Assembly (NCBI GenBank): GCA_040773245.1
Contig: JAXGWO010000003.1
Coordinates: 6,629 to 70,628, forward strand
Direction: 5' to 3'
Source of the DNA: PVC group bacterium
Lineage (GTDB): Bacteria > Auribacterota > Erginobacteria > Erginobacterales > Erginobacteraceae
DNA length: 64,000 nt
Under the pieces are notes generated by a model that worked only from the letters and a program-made list of their open reading frames with translations, searched no databases and was not told the DNA's origin. The position numbers and the translations under genes were made by a program. How positions within the stretch are numbered: position 1 is the stretch's first letter; each line of letters opens with the position of its first letter. This document shows positions 6 through 42,024 of this stretch, one piece after another.

Positions 6-3000
6 ATGACCGAAGCTGCAAATGGGATTCCGCTGCCTCCATCGGACATTCGCAAACTGCGAGAGTGCCAACGACTGGCACTGCAGAAGATCGCATCTTG
101 GCATGGACCGAAGGCGCACGAGACCTTTCTTGCTTGTATGCCGACGGGGACCGGTAAAACGGGCGTCATTGCCCTTAGCGGGTTGTATTTCGCCAAGAAG
201 GATGTGCTGATTGTCACGCCTTGGGACAACCTTCGAACCCAGATGGTAGATGCTCTCGAAGCAAAATTCTGGGAGAACTCAGGAATCACCAAGCCCGAAG
301 GATTCCGAGCAAAGGCCTTCTCCGGCAAAGACCTCGCTGACGAGTTCAAGAAGATAAAACCAGACACGCCGCGAACGTTCTGGGTTACGACGTTCCAAGG
401 CCTCTGGACGACCAGCAAAAGCAAGGAAACCTTCTCTGAACTGCGATCACGTCTCGACCTGGTCGTAATCGATGAAGGACACTACGAACCCGCTATGTGG
501 TGGGGGCACGCCGCCAAAGAGCTCAAGACTCCTACAATCCTGTTTACCGCGACGCCCTACCGCAATGATCTGAAGTACTTCCGCATTCGGGAAAAGGATG
601 TGTCGCACTATAAATACAAGGATGCCGTAACTGAAGATGTCATTCGGCGCGTTGCGCCGACGCCACTCGGAGAAGCTGGAGGGTCCACTGAAGAAATTGC
701 GGCTGCCATCGCCGAGAAATGGAGTAGCGCCAAGAAGCGCACCTTGGCGAACCCGCATCCCAAGATGATTGTTTGCTGCCGCAATTTCCAAGCGGTAAAG
801 GCGTACACCCTCCAACTGGCGAAGCTTGACCTTCCGGTTATCGGCATTCACATCCGCGCGACTAAGAAGCATCTGTCGGCCAAGCAGCTGAAGCTCTTCA
901 GAAGCAAAGTACCGAAAGACCCTTCGGATGAGTCAGCAGAGATATGGGTTCACGAGAAGATGCTCACCGAGGGACTCGACCATCCGCCCTTCTGTTCGCT
1001 CGCAATCACCTACAATATGAGAAATGACCGCAAGTTGATTCAGCAAATCGGCAGGGTTGTGCGGCGAGCTAATGATGATCGGCATAACAACGCCGTTGTT
1101 TACTCGGTTGGCGACGCCTGCGTCGATGCCAGTTGGGAATCGTTTCAGGATTTCGAGGATGACTTTCGTGTGGTCACCACCGAGTACTACAGAGACTTCA
1201 TTGACAACCACCTGAGCAATCAACCTGCGGTGGAGTACTTCGGCAAGCGATTCAGGCGACAACTTGTACCCAAAGAGCTTTCCGCAGAGGTGGCGGGGCG
1301 CGAACTGCTTTCTCTTCCGAGCGTCATAGCGCGTCGCATTGGTGACAACTTTGATATCGACAAGTTCGTCTACGACGTAACCGATAATATCCAACTGCAA
1401 GAGGATTTCGTTGCTCTCGGCCCGATCAGGGACTCGCCGGTGTTATCGCCAGAGGACACTGCGCCCGTGAAGGGAGCGGTGTGGTTATATTGTAGGTTTT
1501 CCAACTCGCGTGCGTTACTTGCGCATTCTGCTTATGAGGTGAAGCTCTCGGCTCTTTGTGTTGTCCTGATCAATCCCTTTCTGTTTGTTTCCGATACGGA
1601 TGCGTTTGTGCCCGCGGAATCTCTTGAGAAACACACCTTCCCATTGCGTCTATCTGACCTGCGCCGAGCGTTCGCAAGTGGGTACCTGCCCACGCAAGTG
1701 CAACTGAAGAACTCCCTACCACACCAAAGCGTGGTACGTGGGACGACACGGTCAGGCAAGAACCTTGCGGAGGTACCCAACTCGCTCACCGAATCAAAGT
1801 ACATCTGTAGTTCGATTCGCGGGAGAAACCCGACCGAAGGGCGTAGGTATGTAGGCTTCACTACTGGACGTCTAAGCGATGATCGAAATGGTATGCGGCG
1901 CTACGAAATGTGCTTCACTGACTTAATCAGGTGGTGTGAAGAGGTTGCTAGGGTGCTGCGGACCTCTGCTGCCACTCACACCTTCTTCCTGCGATTCGCA
2001 CGCCTTGTAGACCCACCTGCGGCGATTGAGCCACACTATGGTTTCTTGGACTTCTGGTCTGGTGCCTTCACGCTCGTGGATCAGGACGGCAACACCAGGG
2101 AACCGATGGATGCCGTGTTTCAGTTTATTCCTGAGGATGCCGATGGAGACGATAAGACGACCAAGGCTTACAGGTTCCACATCCGCGGTGAACTCGACGG
2201 CAAGGAGGAAACAGCGGAGTTGAGAACCTTCTGGCGGGATGGACGATTTCACTTCAAAGCGGTCGAAACCAACGGCCTGGTCATCCGAGAGGCCATAACA
2301 AGCTCTAGCGGTGAGCAAGAATCTACCAGGGACGTTGAGATTGCCTCCTTCTGCAGCCGGAAGCAAGGCGACCTGTTCATTTCACTTGCCTCAAGTAACG
2401 TGATCTTCAATAGCGGAAGCTTCTTCGAGGTCGATCCTACGAGCAATTATTCAGACCTTGGCGGCATGTTCATCGGTTGCGATGAACTCAATCGGGAAGG
2501 ACTTTCCGAGAAGAACCCCAAAGGCAAGAAAAGGATGAAGAGCTGGTGCAAGCAGTCAATCTTCGGAATTGCCAGTTCAGACTCCTTTTTAGCCCGAGAG
2601 TTCGGTGGCAAGCCGGATCTGATTGTGTGTGACGACGGCTCCGACGAGATTGCCGACTTCGTCCTCGTCCAGTTCGATCCACCGAAGTTCGTGCTCGTCC
2701 ACTGCAAGTCTAAACCGCGTAAGGACGACGACAAGGAGCTGCGCGCTGTCTGCGAGCTCCAAGAGGTGGTGTCACAGGCATCAAAGAACCTGGTGTATAT
2801 GTCTGGGCGAAGTCAGATTCCGCCCCACATTGACGAGTGGACGAAGACCAAGAACGTGTACGGTTTCCAGGTGCCGCGGCTACTGCGCAAGGTTGGCACG
2901 AAGCTCTCGGGAACAGCTCTCTGGAATCATATCAGCGACAATGTCCTGCTCAGCAGAAACACAGAGAAGGAAGTGTGGATCATAGTCGGGGGCGCACTCA

Positions 3001-3149
3001 CAAAGTCATGGATCGACCGCGAACTTGCGAAGTGCAAACGAGCGCAGTCGAACCTGGCGTGTCTGTTTCATATGGTTGACGGCCTGAGCGCCTCTTGTAC
3101 GGAAGCCAACGCCAGGCTTAAGGTATTCTGCAACTCCGGAGATAGCTGA
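6..3149 (+). CDS. SF2 (ResIII/DEAD-like) helicase fused to a C-terminal Mrr-like PD-(D/E)xK-type nuclease-like domain; 1047 aa
   Basis: Complete SF2 motif set in the N-terminal ~360 aa: motif I MPTGTGKTG (nt ~139-165), Ia IVTPWDNL, II VVIDEGHY (DExH, nt ~463-486), III TATPYRN, VI QQIGRVVRR. C-terminal region has CDDGSDEIADFVLV ... VLVHCKSK (nt ~2614-2715), resembling the Mrr_cat DGxxD ... QCK core. Lower GC than downstream host genes. Stop overlaps next start (TGATG). Confidence 0.6.
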   Translation: MTEAANGIPLPPSDIRKLRECQRLALQKIASWHGPKAHETFLACMPTGTGKTGVIALSGLYFAKKDVLIVTPWDNLRTQMVDALEAKFWENSGITKPEGFRAKAFSGKDLADEFKKIKPDTPRTFWVTTFQGLWTTSKSKETFSELRSRLDLVVIDEGHYEPAMWWGHAAKELKTPTILFTATPYRNDLKYFRIREKDVSHYKYKDAVTEDVIRRVAPTPLGEAGGSTEEIAAAIAEKWSSAKKRTLANPHPKMIVCCRNFQAVKAYTLQLAKLDLPVIGIHIRATKKHLSAKQLKLFRSKVPKDPSDESAEIWVHEKMLTEGLDHPPFCSLAITYNMRNDRKLIQQIGRVVRRANDDRHNNAVVYSVGDACVDASWESFQDFEDDFRVVTTEYYRDFIDNHLSNQPAVEYFGKRFRRQLVPKELSAEVAGRELLSLPSVIARRIGDNFDIDKFVYDVTDNIQLQEDFVALGPIRDSPVLSPEDTAPVKGAVWLYCRFSNSRALLAHSAYEVKLSALCVVLINPFLFVSDTDAFVPAESLEKHTFPLRLSDLRRAFASGYLPTQVQLKNSLPHQSVVRGTTRSGKNLAEVPNSLTESKYICSSIRGRNPTEGRRYVGFTTGRLSDDRNGMRRYEMCFTDLIRWCEEVARVLRTSAATHTFFLRFARLVDPPAAIEPHYGFLDFWSGAFTLVDQDGNTREPMDAVFQFIPEDADGDDKTTKAYRFHIRGELDGKEETAELRTFWRDGRFHFKAVETNGLVIREAITSSSGEQESTRDVEIASFCSRKQGDLFISLASSNVIFNSGSFFEVDPTSNYSDLGGMFIGCDELNREGLSEKNPKGKKRMKSWCKQSIFGIASSDSFLAREFGGKPDLIVCDDGSDEIADFVLVQFDPPKFVLVHCKSKPRKDDDKELRAVCELQEVVSQASKNLVYMSGRSQIPPHIDEWTKTKNVYGFQVPRLLRKVGTKLSGTALWNHISDNVLLSRNTEKEVWIIVGGALTKSWIDRELAKCKRAQSNLACLFHMVDGLSASCTEANARLKVFCNSGDS

Positions 3150-6657: not shown

Positions 6658-8022
6658 GTGCCATACGACGGTGAATACGCGACATACCGCCCTCTGCATC
6701 GGATCTCCGAGTGCCAAAGGGTGACGAGCCTTCTTGCCCGATCCAAGCTCTTGGAGGTAGCACGGGCCACCTACGCCCCGAAGCCCGTCGAAGCTCCTCC
6801 GCAGGCGCCAGCCTTGCCGCGGTTCATACTCGCGATAGACGGCAGCTACGCTGAAGTGGACGTGAAGAACGGCTATCCGGGCGCCAAGGTCGGCTACTGC
6901 ACTGCGGCGAGTGTGCTCCTTGACCTACACCTCATCGGCGAACTGGATGAAGAGCGTCCGGTTGATCCCGTCGAGTTCCGCAAGACAGAGCAAGCCGCAA
7001 GCGTCGACGCCGCGCTGCCGGGCAGCAACGTGGTCACGCGAAGGCAGAACTCCGCGCGGGCGTCGTTCCGCGAGGAACTCTACGACCTCTTCACCGACAT
7101 CGTCGTTGACGAAGACGACCGTATGAACTTGCTCTCGACCTACGAAGCACTGCTGGTGCTGAAACCGACGGCCAATCCTCAGAGTTGCCCATACAAGGAG
7201 TCGCACGGTTGCACGGCGGCATTCGCGGTTGGCTCCGGTTGCACGATGTGTCCGACCTGCGGTCGTCCCGTATACTCCACCGACGCCCTTCGCATCCATG
7301 AGCGGTTCAGGGACATCGGAACAAACGGCGAGGCGTTCGGCCTGGTAATGCAGGTTATGGAACGGCTGCTCGCAATCCATTTCCTCCGATGCTTTGAGCG
7401 CCGCAATCTGCTGCAACGTCTCCCGTCGCTCGCATTCTTCATCGACGGTCCATTGGCGGCGTTCGGCCCGCCGGCTTGGCTGAGCGCCGCTATCAGCCGG
7501 GAACTCAAACGACTCAATCAGAAGGTGCAGGCCGCAACCGGCCAGGACCTCTTGATCTTAGGCATCGAAAAGACCGGGGTTTTCGTGCAGCACTTCGAAG
7601 AAATCGACCAAACGGAAACGCCGGGACAGCAGCTTTTCTCCGCGCGGCAATACATACTCCTGACGGACGGCTATATCAAGGATCGTATCCTGCACTCCGA
7701 CAGCCACAAGCGGTACGGGGAAGATACCTATTTCGGCCGAAAGTTCTTCTACAAGGCGCAGAGTGGGGCTCGGATCGTCGCCAGCATTCCGTTTCTATCC
7801 GATGCTCAAGACACCATAGCCAATGACGACATCTCTCTCTATCCACAGTTCGCTGCCGTCTGCACGCTCCTGGATCGCGTGGTGTCGTCACGTTACGCGA
7901 ACTCGGTGTCGCCGTTGATTGCGGCCAATGCCCAGGCCGCTATCCCGCTGCAACTCGGATCGAAGGTGTTGACGCAACTGGCGAGGGCGCTTCTAGGAAC
8001 TGCTGAGAATGGCAGGAAATAG
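6658..8022 (+). CDS. NurA-like nuclease-domain protein with inserted Cys4 zinc ribbon; ~455 aa from GTG 6658 (ORF track alternative start ATG 6592 would overlap upstream gene by 65 nt)
   Basis: GTG at 6658 lies 1 nt after the HerA-like stop. N-terminal RFILAIDGSYAEVD (nt ~6824-6860) matches NurA motif I (catalytic Asp in IDGS). A second FFIDGP occurs later. CPYKESHGC ... CTMCPTCG cluster at nt ~7190-7265. Gene order ATPase then nuclease mirrors HerA-NurA operons. Confidence 0.4.
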   Translation: MPYDGEYATYRPLHRISECQRVTSLLARSKLLEVARATYAPKPVEAPPQAPALPRFILAIDGSYAEVDVKNGYPGAKVGYCTAASVLLDLHLIGELDEERPVDPVEFRKTEQAASVDAALPGSNVVTRRQNSARASFREELYDLFTDIVVDEDDRMNLLSTYEALLVLKPTANPQSCPYKESHGCTAAFAVGSGCTMCPTCGRPVYSTDALRIHERFRDIGTNGEAFGLVMQVMERLLAIHFLRCFERRNLLQRLPSLAFFIDGPLAAFGPPAWLSAAISRELKRLNQKVQAATGQDLLILGIEKTGVFVQHFEEIDQTETPGQQLFSARQYILLTDGYIKDRILHSDSHKRYGEDTYFGRKFFYKAQSGARIVASIPFLSDAQDTIANDDISLYPQFAAVCTLLDRVVSSRYANSVSPLIAANAQAAIPLQLGSKVLTQLARALLGTAENGRK

Positions 8023-9121
8023 CAAAACCTTCGGCACCGCGGCGAAGAGGTGGGAGGGAATCGGCCCATACTACGCCATGTTCCCGATTCGATTTGCCGA
8101 CGCGGTTATCAAAGAGCATACGGCAGCGGGTGACACAGTGCTTGACCCGTTCGCCGGCCGCGGGACCGCGATCTTCAGCGCATCGGCACTGGGGAGGCGC
8201 GGGTTCGGCGTTGAGATAAGTCCTGTCGGATGGGTCTACGCGAAGGCCAAGCTGGGCCCCGCGCCTCCGGAGCAAGTCGAGCAACGGCTACAGGAGATTG
8301 CTAATGCGGGCAGAGTCTATGCCGAGCAAGCCCGGTCTCTGCCGGAGTTCTTCAAGAAGTGCTTCTCTCCGTCTGTTCGGCGCTTCCTGCTCGCCGCGCG
8401 AGATGGACTCGACTGGCGTAGATGCACTTGCGACAGGACACTTATGGCGATCCTACTCGTCTACCTGCACGGGAAGGAAGGCCAGGCACTATCGAACCAG
8501 ATGAGGCAAACAAAGGCTATGTCACCGCAGTACGCCATCCAATGGTGGATTGAACACGGATCGAATCCGCCTGACTTAGATGCGGTGGAGTTTCTGCAGC
8601 AGCGAATCCGCTGGCGATACGCGAAGGGCGTGATTGAGGCGGATGACAGCCGGATTTTCCTGGGCAACAGCATCACCGTCCTTCCGCAATTGGCGAAGCG
8701 AATGCGCGAAGAGAAAGCCCCAAAAGCGAAGCTCTTGCTCACATCACCGCCGTACTTTGGCGTTACGAATTACCATTACGACCAGTGGCTTAGGCTCTGG
8801 TTGCTAGGATTTGAGACCGACGCCTACGTGGCCCGAGGGCCATACCAAGGCCGGTTCACCCATCCTGTCCGCTATCGAAGCTTGCTCAATAAGGTCTTCT
8901 GCCGCGCGGCGAAACTGATCGCGGACAACGCAGTGGTCTACGTCCGCACTAGCAAGGACCCGTTTACCAAGAAGGCGACGCTTGATACCATGCTCAAAGC
9001 CTTCCCGAAGAAGCGGCTGATCGAGCGATGCCAGCCATTCCGAAAACCGACGCAGACATTCCTTTTCGGCGACAACACGCCGAAGGCTGGCGAGGTAGAC
9101 TTAATCTTGTTGCCATCATGA
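8009..9121 (+). CDS. DNA methyltransferase, N6-adenine/N4-cytosine family (N6_N4_Mtase-like); 370 aa
   Basis: AdoMet motif I VLDPFAGRGTAIFSA (nt ~8140-8180) and catalytic motif IV LLTSPPYFGV (nt ~8744-8770; SPPY typical of N4C/N6A MTases). Order I ... IV with ~200 aa between. Start overlaps the NurA-like gene end by 14 nt. Confidence 0.75.
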   Translation: MAGNSKTFGTAAKRWEGIGPYYAMFPIRFADAVIKEHTAAGDTVLDPFAGRGTAIFSASALGRRGFGVEISPVGWVYAKAKLGPAPPEQVEQRLQEIANAGRVYAEQARSLPEFFKKCFSPSVRRFLLAARDGLDWRRCTCDRTLMAILLVYLHGKEGQALSNQMRQTKAMSPQYAIQWWIEHGSNPPDLDAVEFLQQRIRWRYAKGVIEADDSRIFLGNSITVLPQLAKRMREEKAPKAKLLLTSPPYFGVTNYHYDQWLRLWLLGFETDAYVARGPYQGRFTHPVRYRSLLNKVFCRAAKLIADNAVVYVRTSKDPFTKKATLDTMLKAFPKKRLIERCQPFRKPTQTFLFGDNTPKAGEVDLILLPS

Positions 9122-9221
9122 GAAACGAAACACAGTATGGGTTCCTAATGGAAGCAGCGCAATAGCCGATTGTGGCGGGCGATCCACTTTGCGGTCAGCC
9201 TCTGAAACGGGCTAGGAGGAA

Positions 9222-10151
9222 ATGACTATGCCGAACTTGGAAATCGCGGCTAGAAATTTCATAGGAACCTACACCTCACTAAACGGCACCACTATTCAGC
9301 CTATCAGTCGATTCGCCCTTCTCCGGTCCATGATCACTGTCGGGTATAAGTGCGAGGCCGACGCGATCGGGTATGGCTGGCGGAGTATCGGTTGGCATCT
9401 TTCGACCTGCTTTCTCACCATCGCTACGACCGTATCGCGGAACGGCAACTTGGTCGTATCTAAGCTTTTCCACTCCCTGGATTCATCCGAAAAGAATATG
9501 GTCAGCTACCGCTTGGGGATGGGTCTAACCAAGTACACTGCGGAAGTCAAACTCAACGTCCCGTGGCTCGTACACCTGGACAAGATATTCAATGCTGGTG
9601 GACTAACCTTGCAGGACGGGACTCTCGAACGTGGAGACCTTGCTGGGCAAGACGGCGCTGGGGTATGGCATGTGGTAGAGGCAAAGGGCAGATCCAATCC
9701 GCCATCCGGCAAGCTCCTCACCAAAGCCAAGAATCAGGTCTCGCGCGTTACCTCCATTAATGGACAGCCCCCGGCCACCAAGTCGGCGTCTATCATCCAT
9801 TTGTACAGAGACCCCATCAGAGCCGAATTGGTTGACCCACAGAAGCCGGAGAAGAAGCCACTCAAGATCCAGATATCGCTCGGTAAGTATTTCCCAACAT
9901 ACTATGCCATTCTCCTTCAACTCCTCGATCTCTCCGAAATACAGTCTCACGTGGTTGGCGATGTACCCTTTAGCCTGACTCCCTTTGATTTTGGTGGCAA
10001 TGTGATCGGAATCGGCCTTGCTGACGCTGTTCGGAGGAATCCCACGGAAGCCCAGAGATTAACAAAGGAAATTCTGGCGATGGACCTGCGGCAGCGGGAG
10101 AATCCAAAGAAAAGCATTGGCCTTGATGGGGTGATTGTGGCGCAAATGTGA
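9222..10151 (+). CDS. Hypothetical protein, possible PD-(D/E)xK restriction-endonuclease-like partner of the methyltransferase (start more likely ATG 9228, which has AGGAGG 8 nt upstream)
   Basis: Segment RGDLAGQDGAGVWHVVEAKGRS (nt ~9640-9700) fits a D-x(n)-ExK core. Sits immediately downstream of a DNA MTase. No other recognisable motif, so the functional call is weak. Confidence 0.3.
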   Translation: MTMPNLEIAARNFIGTYTSLNGTTIQPISRFALLRSMITVGYKCEADAIGYGWRSIGWHLSTCFLTIATTVSRNGNLVVSKLFHSLDSSEKNMVSYRLGMGLTKYTAEVKLNVPWLVHLDKIFNAGGLTLQDGTLERGDLAGQDGAGVWHVVEAKGRSNPPSGKLLTKAKNQVSRVTSINGQPPATKSASIIHLYRDPIRAELVDPQKPEKKPLKIQISLGKYFPTYYAILLQLLDLSEIQSHVVGDVPFSLTPFDFGGNVIGIGLADAVRRNPTEAQRLTKEILAMDLRQRENPKKSIGLDGVIVAQM

Positions 10152-10992
10152 CGGCAGCCCCAACAAGAGCATCCAGCCCTACAAACGGGCCGCGCGGATG
10201 CGGCTCTTTTTAAGGCTGAAGCTCGCCGTTGATCTGAATAATAAGATGCGGCACCAAAAGAATATCATTGCCTTTAATGGCAAAGCACGCGGTCCGTCCG
10301 AAGAGAAGGCGCGAGTGGCGTTTATCAATAAAGCCTCGGGGTTATTATTCATCGCAGCAAAGGAGGCCGCAAAACGTGCACTAAGAGCATCAGGCACACT
10401 CGGGGAGCAAAATGAGGCAATGACCGCTGTGGTTCTGTGCGGAGTAGTCGCAGAGGCCAGCATCAATGAAATCAGCGCGTGGTATGAATCTCATCATCTT
10501 CATCCCCAGTTCAGCGTTTCGCATAATCTTCCATATGGCTTTGACCGCTTGGAACTCCGTGTCAAGTGGTCATTGTTCCCGATGATTGTCAGGCAACGTA
10601 GTTTCAACACTGGTGCCGAACTATGGCAGAGCTTCAATGCTCTAGTTGAACTCCGCAACTTCATTGTTCACCTTCGAGATCGCCCCCTATCAAAGTCAGT
10701 CAATGGATTACTAAGATCAAAAAAACTGATAGAGGAGCACCATAGTTTTCTTGGCTTTCCGGTTGCACAGTGGGCCTGCGAAACCGTTGCTTCAATGTTC
10801 GAAGAGCTTACCAAGTTGGTGGCACCACCTCAGGAATGGATACCAATCGTCTGGCATTGGACCCCAACTCATTCGTTCCCTTATGGCTTGTCGACACCAG
10901 GTGATTCGTTTGTTGAAACAGAAAGCAAGAAGCTACCAACAAGACGATCTAGGGGAAGGATCACTCGCAGTGGGTTCGCCACCCGTGAATGA
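10135..10992 (+). CDS. Hypothetical protein (285 aa; true start uncertain, internal ATGs at ~10197 and ~10246)
   Basis: Last ORF of the low-GC plus-strand array. Codon usage like the island genes. No motif recognised. Confidence 0.3.
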   Translation: MWRKCDGSPNKSIQPYKRAARMRLFLRLKLAVDLNNKMRHQKNIIAFNGKARGPSEEKARVAFINKASGLLFIAAKEAAKRALRASGTLGEQNEAMTAVVLCGVVAEASINEISAWYESHHLHPQFSVSHNLPYGFDRLELRVKWSLFPMIVRQRSFNTGAELWQSFNALVELRNFIVHLRDRPLSKSVNGLLRSKKLIEEHHSFLGFPVAQWACETVASMFEELTKLVAPPQEWIPIVWHWTPTHSFPYGLSTPGDSFVETESKKLPTRRSRGRITRSGFATRE

Positions 10993-11146: not shown

Positions 11147-12553
11147 TTACCACCAGCCCGGATAGGGAGGGACAAGGAAGAGGCGGAGGTGGAGGTCGCG
11201 GACTACTCTCAGGAGGAACTTGATAGCCCGCCAGTTTAGGGCCTTGAGGTTTCGGCGGAGGAAATAGAGGATGGTTGCGGGGTCGCGCTGGATTATCCGC
11301 ACTATCTTTTTGGAGGCGGCGGTTAGGTCGGAGTAGAAACTGGTCCAGGGGAGCTTGATCCAGGGCCAGGGGCCCTGCAGGTTCCAGTCGCCCTGCAGGG
11401 TTCCGTTCTTTTTGGCCTCCTCGTAGACCTCGGTTCCGGGGAGGGGATAGAGGACGGGGACGAAGCCTACTATCGGTTTGGCCTGGCGGAGGAAGGCGAT
11501 GGTTTCTTCGACGGTCTCGGGGGTCTCGCCCGGGAAGCCGACCATTATCTCGCCGTAGCAGCCAATTCCGGCTTCCTTGGTCAACCGCGCGGCTTCCAGG
11601 TTTTGAGCCACCGTGGTCCCCTTCCCCATCGCCTCCAGCACCCGGTCCGACCCGGACTCGAAGCCATAGACGATCTGCTCCACCCCTGCCCTCTTCAATT
11701 TCTCCAGCAGTTCCCGATCGACGGCGTCAACCCGGGAGCGGATCTTAAGCCGAAAATGGTATCCGCCACGGACCAGTCCATCGGCGATCTCCAGGCAGCG
11801 GGAACGGGCGGCGGTGAAGGCGTCGTCCTGGATGTGGACCGACCTCACCCCGCGACGCCGCAGTTCCTCGAACTCCACCATCAGGTTCTCGACGGACCGG
11901 ACGCGGCACTTCTTCTCCACCTGGAAACAGAATCGGCAGTTATAAGGACAGCCCCGGGAGCTGATCATCATATCCAGTTTTCCCCGGGCGGCCAGGTTCC
12001 AGTACAGGCCAGCTTGGTAGTAGCGGTCGAGGTAGCTTCGGTCGAGCGGGGGCAGGAGGTCGAGGTCCTCGATCCGGTCGGGGGGGTTGGAGGCGATCCC
12101 GCCTTCCGTCCGGTGAACCAGGCCGGGGACTTCCCGGGCGGGGATCTTTCCTTCCAGCATCTTGACCAGGGCGGGGAAGGAGCGGTCGGCCTCCCCCCGG
12201 ATGGCGTAGTCGAGCTGGGTAATCTTCTCCAGGGTCCACTCCGGCCGGGCGGTGGGGTGGGGACCGCCGACGACCATCGCCGCGTCGGGGAGGTAGGTCT
12301 TCATCCGCCGGGTGATCCGGTCGAAGGGGATCAGGTAGGGGGTGTAGCAGGTCAGTCCGACCAAGTCCGGGCGGTAGTCCCGGATCTCGGCGAAGAAGGG
12401 GTCCATCCGGCGGAACTCGCCGGAGTAGTCGAAGATCCTCGCCTCCTCCCCCGTTTCCCCGAGCTGGGTGGCCAGCCGGCAGAGGTGGAGGGGGGGGTAG
12501 TAGCCGGTGGACCTACCCTGGAAGGCGTCGTAAGCAACAAGGGCGATCTTCAT
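11147..12553 (-). CDS. B12-binding domain radical SAM protein; 468 aa
   Basis: N-terminal cobalamin-binding-like region (MKIALVAYDAF ... DLVGLTCYTP). Radical SAM CxxxCxxC: SSRGCPYNCRFCF. High-GC host-type codon usage begins here. Confidence 0.8.
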   Translation of the reverse strand: MKIALVAYDAFQGRSTGYYPPLHLCRLATQLGETGEEARIFDYSGEFRRMDPFFAEIRDYRPDLVGLTCYTPYLIPFDRITRRMKTYLPDAAMVVGGPHPTARPEWTLEKITQLDYAIRGEADRSFPALVKMLEGKIPAREVPGLVHRTEGGIASNPPDRIEDLDLLPPLDRSYLDRYYQAGLYWNLAARGKLDMMISSRGCPYNCRFCFQVEKKCRVRSVENLMVEFEELRRRGVRSVHIQDDAFTAARSRCLEIADGLVRGGYHFRLKIRSRVDAVDRELLEKLKRAGVEQIVYGFESGSDRVLEAMGKGTTVAQNLEAARLTKEAGIGCYGEIMVGFPGETPETVEETIAFLRQAKPIVGFVPVLYPLPGTEVYEEAKKNGTLQGDWNLQGPWPWIKLPWTSFYSDLTAASKKIVRIIQRDPATILYFLRRNLKALNWRAIKFLLRVVRDLHLRLFLVPPYPGWW

Positions 12554-41950: not shown

Positions 41951-42024
41951 GGCGGAGTAGCTCAGCTGGTTAGAGCAGCGGAATCATAATCCGCGTGTCG
42001 GGGGTTCGAGTCCCTCCTCCGCTA
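41951..42024 (+). tRNA. tRNA with anticodon CAT (elongator tRNA-Met or tRNA-Ile2/lysidine type); 74 nt, CCA not encoded
   Basis: Cloverleaf read by eye. Acceptor GGCGGAG/CTCCGCT (one G-U). D-arm GCTC-AGCTGGTTA-GAGC. Anticodon stem GCGGA/TCCGC with loop ATCATAA. Variable loop GTGTC. T-arm GGGGG-TTCGAGT-CCCTC. Discriminator A. Anticodon stem lacks the three G:C pairs of an initiator tRNA. Confidence 0.85.

Follow-up and report, generated by a model that had tools for sequence, protein, structure and literature searches.

HerA, NurA and a methyltransferase at one locus

The stretch of DNA analysed here (the window) comprises 64,000 nucleotides (nt) of contig JAXGWO010000003.1 from a PVC group bacterium (assembly GCA_040773245.1). 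At its left end lies an island of low G+C content (GC; 0.49-0.60 from position 1 to ~11,146, against 0.65 in the remainder), whose own left edge falls outside the window and whose seven genes are all on one strand (Table 1). Three consecutive genes encode a HerA-type ATPase, a NurA-family nuclease and a methyltransferase (MTase) dependent on S-adenosylmethionine (SAM), and they are followed by a gene for a protein of 309 amino acids (aa), p309. An earlier note on this DNA had proposed that the MTase and p309 are a classical Type II restriction-modification (R-M) pair or, alternatively, that the MTase protects against a module of HerA, NurA and a helicase. We find that the MTase belongs with HerA and NurA, and we propose that this trio acts in immunity.

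The three genes are closely packed. Alignment of orthologues puts the NurA start at GTG 6658, 1 nt past the HerA stop, and the MTase start overlaps the NurA stop by 14 nt. The start mechanically listed for NurA, ATG 6592, is probably too early, judging from the alignment. GC at third codon positions (GC3) is 0.70-0.76 in the trio, 0.59-0.64 in the helicase and DUF4062-like genes at the left of the island, 0.62 in p309 and 0.48 in the HEPN-like open reading frame (ORF) that follows it.

Table 1. Genes and other features of the low-GC island (SF2, superfamily 2)
Feature	Positions	Strand	Remarks
SF2 helicase	6-3149	+	ResIII/DEAD N-terminus; C-terminal half (aa 508-1043) PDC-S71-like
DUF4062-like protein, 377 aa	3149-4282	+	start/stop-coupled to the SF2 helicase
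HerA-type hexameric ATPase/translocase, 713 aa	4515-6656	+	first gene of the trio; Pfam DUF87
NurA-family nuclease, 454 aa	6658-8022	+	second gene of the trio; Pfam NurA; start GTG 6658
SAM-dependent amino-methyltransferase (MTase), 370 aa	8009-9121	+	third gene of the trio; PF01555
p309, 309 aa, predicted PD-(D/E)xK fold	9222-10151	+	neighbour outside the trio; family without a Pfam model
Terminator-like hairpin and T-run	10187-10216 (hairpin 10187-10206)	+	8-bp stem, 6 GC pairs; consensus match
HEPN-like ORF, 248 aa	10246-10992	+	Rx4H (RNFIVH); neighbour outside the trio

HerA matches Pfam DUF87 (7.7e-11), and in 54 orthologues its Walker A, Walker B (VYVEEAHN) and AKEGxKY/ATQ blocks show conservation of 95% or more. 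Its best solved relative is TdpA (8wet_A; phmmer E 2.4e-18), to which it aligns in two colinear stretches, the Walker A region and the Walker B/C-terminal region. In PADLOC it gives partial HerA/mad8 matches (E 3e-22 and 4.8e-12) on the C-terminal ATPase region, and all its scores against the NCBIfam HerA_antiphage models are far under their cutoffs. NurA scores 39.5 bits against its Pfam model (cutoff 21), and its IDGS, STDALR, DGPLA and GIEKTG blocks are invariant in the orthologue alignment. The two genes thus present the marks of a HerA-NurA complex: a DUF87 protein with conserved Walker A and B motifs, adjoined by a NurA protein above cutoff. NurA has no sequence match in PADLOC (PADLOC-DB 2.0), NCBIfam or the PDB, where neither its sequence nor the NurA profile finds any chain at E<=10, and no NCBIfam family is above cutoff for HerA, NurA or the MTase. 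NurA also carries a Cys-rich insert (CPY...C...C..C..C; nt 7168-7260, aa ~171-201), in which just two cysteines are invariant in the orthologues and a zinc ribbon is uncertain.

HerA, NurA and the methyltransferase are a conserved unit

We read gene neighbourhoods in two scans. The scan anchored on the MTase covered 185,579 species genomes, one per species, and found 82 relatives, of which 80 loci were read; a metagenome scan anchored on NurA found 361 relatives, and the best 80 were read. The first contexts read contained HerA (712-714 aa), NurA (453 aa) and the MTase (369-370 aa), in that order, and neither p309 nor the helicase. Across the MTase-anchored set, compared by tblastn with all seven island proteins, ~70 of the 80 loci, from more than 15 phyla, show HerA, NurA and the MTase colinear and abutting; the exceptions are mostly contig ends. 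Among the best 80 of the 361 NurA relatives, the MTase lies downstream at every locus with room for it (74 of 74), and HerA upstream likewise (62 of 62). At the 80 MTase-anchored loci the helicase, the DUF4062-like protein, the HEPN-like ORF and p309 all lack a homologue; p309 is missing from the 80 NurA-anchored loci as well.

The identities of the three proteins to the window copies co-vary (r = 0.86-0.94 over 51 loci). A conserved fourth gene was looked for by clustering ~2,000 flanking ORFs within 5 kb at ~78 loci, and none was found; the commonest cluster, a short-chain dehydrogenase, occurs at 8 loci. We conclude that HerA, NurA and the MTase are one conserved, self-contained unit with catalytic motifs kept. 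Of the module against which the methylase had been suggested to protect, HerA and NurA are therefore retained, on the strength of their near-obligate colinear linkage, co-varying identities and tight junctions, with protection as the function we would propose; the helicase, absent from every related locus, drops out.

The identity of the trio proteins between phyla reaches 75-88%, which argues for horizontal transfer. More remote trios, at 23-30% identity, occur on a plasmid of the haloarchaeon Halorarius, in unchanged order, and on the Deferribacter megaplasmid pDF308 (locus L180, 2739-9212), where the order is MTase-HerA-NurA. Because the linkage survives this reordering, it points to a functional unit. 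In Deferribacter an IS200/IS605 tnpA-tnpB insertion splits HerA, and the MTase is intact. The genes found beside trios elsewhere include PIN_8, UvrD-PDDEXK, a Schlafen-type helicase, a C5 methylase and NYN proteins. No occurrence of the trio was found in E. coli genomes. A phage origin was considered and set aside: there is no NurA relative in IMG/VR, phage genomes hold one weak match to the MTase, and neither NurA nor p309 has a PHROG.

No NurA of the close clade was seen to lack the MTase; the converse does occur. At two independent loci, members of the MTase clade (48-53% identity) stand without HerA and NurA and are adjoined by genes for FRG-domain and GmrSD_N (DUF262) proteins, in differing gene orders (L034, 7995-11113; L073, 9962-13076). 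FRG/GmrSD_N may be an alternative restriction partner of the same methylase, as if the modification module had been swapped. A Latescibacterota chromosome (L082, 7864-11020) has HerA followed directly by the MTase, with NurA missing; its sister genomes (L078-L080 and L086) keep NurA.

The methyltransferase has a predicted canonical fold

Motif I of the MTase, DPFAGRGT, occupies aa 46-53 (nt 8144-8167), and motif IV, SPPY, aa 246-249 (nt 8744-8755), exactly 200 residues further on, as the ~200 aa of the earlier note had it. Because DPFAGRGT and TSPPY are invariant across 23 homologues, they are not chance matches. PF01555 covers only aa 19-72 (43.9 bits; cutoff 26.7), and these residues align to profile positions 160-213 of 221. 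Since an N-terminal segment of the MTase thus aligns to the C-terminal part of the model, its order is permuted relative to that of the beta class; the reversal relative to PF01555 enzymes that had been proposed is real. Solved beta-class enzymes in the PDB align likewise, and in 2zie the order is the opposite one, with TSPPY at residue 41-57 and motif I at 216-276. The beta-class arrangement, xPPY N-terminal to FxGxG, is not found in the MTase.

In an AlphaFold2 (AF2) model of the MTase (predicted local distance difference test score, pLDDT, 82.6), motif I follows strand 1, SPPY closes strand 4, and strands 1 to 7 succeed one another in the canonical order. As in exocyclic-amino MTases, the SAM loop is intact and strand 4 ends in a (S/D/N)PP(Y/F) motif. 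On this model, having motif I before motif IV is not exotic: it is the order of a canonical Rossmann fold, into which a conserved set of helices is inserted. The insertion consists of six helices (aa 87-205, ~120 aa) between strands 2 and 3 and is family-specific. Its mean column conservation is 0.68, compared with 0.65-0.70 for the catalytic core, and the most conserved blocks of the protein are aa 161-180 and aa 251-270. The MTase has no variable target recognition domain (TRD), so that it may have a single, fixed short target or use the helical insertion for docking. In motif usage SPPY points to N4-methylcytosine, which is probably the product; N6-methyladenine is possible.

Compared with the unpermuted alpha- and gamma-class exocyclic-amino MTases and the Trm11/TrmN RNA N2-methylguanosine MTases, the SAM-binding half here is nearest to beta-class PF01555 by sequence, and the ~120-aa helical insertion is the family's own feature. 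The MTase family has 3,498 matches, of which the first 120 have identities of 57% or more and are spread over phyla. The Halorarius MTase (DPFSGGGT...TSPPY) has its motifs in the same order. So does a 31%-identical MTase on a Bradyrhizobium plasmid (L097, 2940-12324). It has a gene for an 'anti-phage dGTPase' on one side and one for a 1,416-aa AAA_11/AAA_12 helicase on the other, and genes for DUF2971 and DUF262 proteins lie upstream.

p309 is an independent gene

p309 has no sequence match in Pfam, PADLOC, NCBIfam, PHROGs or the PDB. Nevertheless, its AF2 model (pLDDT 90.8; predicted template modelling score 0.91) has an alpha-beta-beta-beta-alpha-beta core, its best structural matches are PD-(D/E)xK nucleases, and the catalytic triad sits on strands 2 and 3 of the core, as it does in that fold. 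The earlier note had staked its Type II pair on p309 having a nuclease fold, and the model predicts one. All of 24 close and 38 distant relatives have the residues D139 (nt 9636-9638), E153-x-K155 (nt 9678-9686) and Q172, and a 28%-identical Agrobacterium protein has "PD...ESK...Q" at the signature places. The PD-(D/E)xK core read from the sequence is thus upheld, with a spacing from D to ExK of 13 residues and not the 14 first given. An exhaustive profile search, with clustering at 50% identity, gave 1,680 clusters at E<=1e-3, including 544 at E<=1e-30; the 38 members sampled have no Pfam domain, apart from one GNAT fusion.

The surroundings of p309 relatives are diverse. Close relatives (33-68% identity) occur in Type I systems, where hsdS and hsdR abut them on either side. 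Others lie within another hsd operon; after a DUF1156...DUF499 system; in an integrase-bearing element beside UvrD-PDDEXK and a methylase; near HNH, SNase and Ymh genes; and downstream of a TIR gene and an ordinary beta-class Type II pair. On 110 Agrobacterium/Rhizobium plasmids, distant members come after a hypothetical gene and a gene for a RES-family NAD+ phosphorylase, in an apparent operon (for example on pAt12D1, L096, 4695-7500), and two further distant members are in non-defence contexts. p309 is, then, an independent gene, often lodged beside R-M-type loci.

These contexts bear on the proposal that the MTase and p309 are a Type II pair, in which the MTase would protect against an adjacent endonuclease. 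The two genes do adjoin on the same strand, 100 nt apart, and the predicted p309 nuclease has its catalytic residues intact. Yet a p309 homologue occurs at none of the 154 loci with this MTase clade, and p309 homologues accompany unrelated MTases, or none, next to many other systems. Moreover, GC3 of p309 differs from that of the trio, and the gene with which the MTase overlaps is NurA. We consider the Type II pair hardly credible and abandon it. Most likely, p309 is a stand-alone or back-up nuclease (Mrr-like/Type IV-like or triggered) rather than the cognate endonuclease of the MTase, its nuclease activity being predicted from the model. With Mrr/Hjc-like PD-(D/E)xK nucleases it shares the core fold, the D...ExK triad, a length of ~300 aa and a location beside hsd genes, and it differs from them in matching no entry of the five databases named above and in having unassigned N- and C-terminal domains. 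In E. coli, mrr stands beside the hsd genes in the immigration control region.

A coupling of p309 to the trio in this particular genome deserves separate consideration. Here p309, perhaps with the HEPN-like ORF, would be a back-up effector, in the way that Type I R-M systems guard PrrC-type genes. The close relatives embedded in hsd operons fit such a role, a DNA methylase lies within about three genes in 6 of 9 sampled p309 contexts, and no terminator-like site separates the MTase from p309, one coming only after it. However, p309 is not conserved with any single partner system, and its distant members extend to non-defence contexts. The coupling is plausible but on the whole unlikely. p309 has a strong AGGAGG ribosome-binding site of its own after the 100-nt spacer.

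Neighbouring genes of the island

The helicase and the DUF4062-like gene (GC 0.54 as a pair) were considered as members of the system and rejected, being absent from all 154 related loci and different in GC. They are probably a separate two-gene defence candidate. Residues 508-1043 of the helicase match the PADLOC candidate PDC-S71 (E 1e-23).

The terminator-like hairpin starts 36 nt past the p309 stop; terminator-like sites are rarer in this region than in shuffled sequence, and the one at 10187-10216 is a consensus match only. Because this hairpin sits between the two possible starts of the HEPN-like ORF, we prefer ATG 10246 and reject the mechanically listed TTG 10135. The ORF has the lowest GC of the island (0.49) and a weak match to RTasHEPN (E 0.009), with no match in Pfam, the PDB or PHROG.

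Directly to the right of the island is a B12-binding radical SAM gene (11147-12553, minus strand) of host-like GC (0.64). A radical SAM gene also adjoins distant p309 relatives in Desulfoscipio and Chloroflexus (L182, 5531-7999; L009, 4313-5281), possibly by coincidence; in Desulfoscipio it is directly upstream of the p309 relative, in a flagellin-glycosylation cluster. Pfam and PADLOC scans of the island find no Type IIG enzyme or integrase, and the sole tRNA of the window is at 41951.

Relation to known systems

The best solved relative of HerA comes from TdpABC, a three-gene R-M system of thermophiles based on phosphorothioate (PT), in which tdpC alone makes the modification. TdpABC (structures 8wet, 8wfd and 8y1k) and the trio have in common three genes, one of them for modification, and a HerA-like hexameric ATPase. 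They differ in the modification enzyme, PT-forming TdpC there and a SAM methyltransferase here; in the nuclease, which here is NurA, without a sequence or profile match to any solved chain; and in their hosts, thermophiles there and mesophiles of many phyla here.

Other defence systems also use a HerA-type ATPase as scaffold or motor, among them SIR2-HerA, DUF4297-HerA and the DndH/HerA 'capture' systems. Their effector is SIR2, DUF4297 or a restriction endonuclease, in place of which the trio has NurA. It also carries a self-marking methylase, so that it would be R-M-like rather than act by abortive infection. PADLOC models for SIR2, DUF4297 and mad1-7 match none of NurA, p309 and the HEPN-like protein, nor the MTase among the best 25 of its 59 matches.

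In archaea, HerA (DUF87, Walker A/B) and NurA genes likewise stand side by side and their products form an end-resection complex. A housekeeping role in double-strand-break repair, with the methylase marking strand or origin, can draw on this likeness and on the effects of the Deinococcus and Thermus versions on repair. The trio differs in its obligate methylase partner and in the greater size of its HerA, whose 713 aa include an insert of ~245 aa between the Walker A and Walker B regions. Furthermore, Mre11/Rad50 are not among its recurrent neighbours: no fourth gene recurs within 5 kb of the trio (~78 loci), and by Pfam neither of the two is in the window. The 82 relatives among 185,579 species are a sporadic set, identity between phyla exceeds 80%, and the trio lies in a low-GC island. 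Because the distribution is sporadic and transferred, we regard housekeeping repair as highly improbable. The Sulfolobus HerA-NurA complex has itself been proposed to destroy blunt-ended foreign DNA.

Only one operon with these types of protein has been studied by experiment, the tdtA operon on the mobile island ICETh1 of Thermus thermophilus, which encodes the Type IIG enzyme TthHB27I, a NurA-like protein, TdtA and the PF01555 methylase TTC1880. By published gene content, the last three, which are cotranscribed, are the same protein types as those of the trio. TdtA is a membrane-associated hexameric ATPase of the HerA/FtsK family, and the role assigned to the operon is DNA donation, for which both NurA and TdtA are required. 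The main alternative to an R-M-like reading is accordingly that the trio is a DNA-mobilisation module of this kind, in which NurA and a HerA-like pump process DNA and export it ('transjugation') and the methylase is accessory. The horizontal mobility of the trio would fit. On the other hand, the ICETh1 order is NurA-TdtA-MTase, with the Type IIG enzyme upstream and an integrase, whereas the trio runs HerA-NurA-MTase; it has no conserved fourth gene beside it, whether for an integrase, a relaxase, a Type IIG enzyme or anything else, and its flanks vary with every lineage. In addition, inspection of HerA by eye revealed no evident membrane segment. For these reasons we think a role in DNA donation unlikely.

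A proposed methylation-gated immune system

The reading that we prefer, at a probability of roughly 60%, is that the MTase is the modification gene of a horizontally mobile three-gene cassette that would provide ATP-dependent, methylation-gated R-M-like immunity. We infer its defence role, its DNA substrate and the methylated base alike from sequence. Beyond the linkage, the following observations support such a system. First, NurA never lacks the MTase in the close clade, and the MTase can stand without HerA and NurA at the FRG/GmrSD_N loci. Second, in Deferribacter the disrupted gene is HerA and the MTase is intact. Third, the trio is horizontally transferred, lies in a low-GC island, keeps company with defence-type neighbours and is absent from viral contigs. 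Fourth, HerA is nearest to TdpA, a component of a three-gene R-M system.

In mechanism, a HerA hexamer and a NurA dimer would load on DNA and degrade it processively, as in archaeal end resection, and the MTase would mark host DNA with the methyl group predicted above. The marks might stall or exclude the translocating nuclease and so protect self DNA. Reportedly, PT on self DNA inhibits both the translocation and the nuclease activity of TdpAB. Alternatively, the MTase might be the subunit that reads sites for the complex, after the manner of Type I and Type III enzymes.

Several points weigh against immunity of this kind. In ICETh1, the only studied trio of like gene content, NurA and TdtA act in DNA donation, and the effects of losing the methylase are minor. 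Typical R-M methylases diversify in a hypervariable TRD, which the MTase does not have. Several trios stand amid ordinary metabolic genes. Cyanobacterial plasmids carry more distant HerA-NurA pairs without a methylase. And the model raises the question of how a ring-shaped translocase-nuclease would read a base methyl group, or how a methylase would serve as its specificity subunit. The cyanobacterial pairs (~25% identity; on a Tolypothrix plasmid, L181, 3784-10173, and on Nostoc and Calothrix plasmids) have a small ORF next to them, followed by a gene for an 816-aa exonuclease-domain protein, and constitute a different HerA-NurA-based module.

A broader view, which we put forward more tentatively and do not favour over its negation, is that HerA-NurA-MTase could represent an uncharacterised, wide class of ATP-dependent R-M-like systems, in bacteria and haloarchaea, with an end-resection machine as effector. 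Its brakes or licences would be set by a non-permuted, PF01555-related methylase without a variable TRD, and p309 would represent a new family of PD-(D/E)xK nucleases, with 1,680 clusters or more, that parasitises or backs up R-M loci. Such a class might be regarded as a methyl-based counterpart of PT-gated TdpAB, functionally akin to the control of RecBCD by Chi. We found no model of the trio in PADLOC or NCBIfam, and no description of a HerA-NurA-methylase defence trio in the searchable literature; an earlier computational mention is possible.

Implications

If the trio is immune in function, it would add a new type of effector, the processive HerA-NurA translocase-nuclease, to the modification-based systems that tell self from non-self, and it would tie the long-debated question of whether HerA-NurA serves "repair or destruction of foreign DNA" to a testable bacterial system. 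The strict conservation of the non-catalytic MTase insertion predicts one universal target motif or protein docking, either of which would be unusual for an R-M methylase. At 4.6 kb, the cassette is self-contained and common in environmental bacteria, and should be easy to clone and test. Finally, p309 marks a large family with a predicted PD-(D/E)xK fold for which Pfam has no model.

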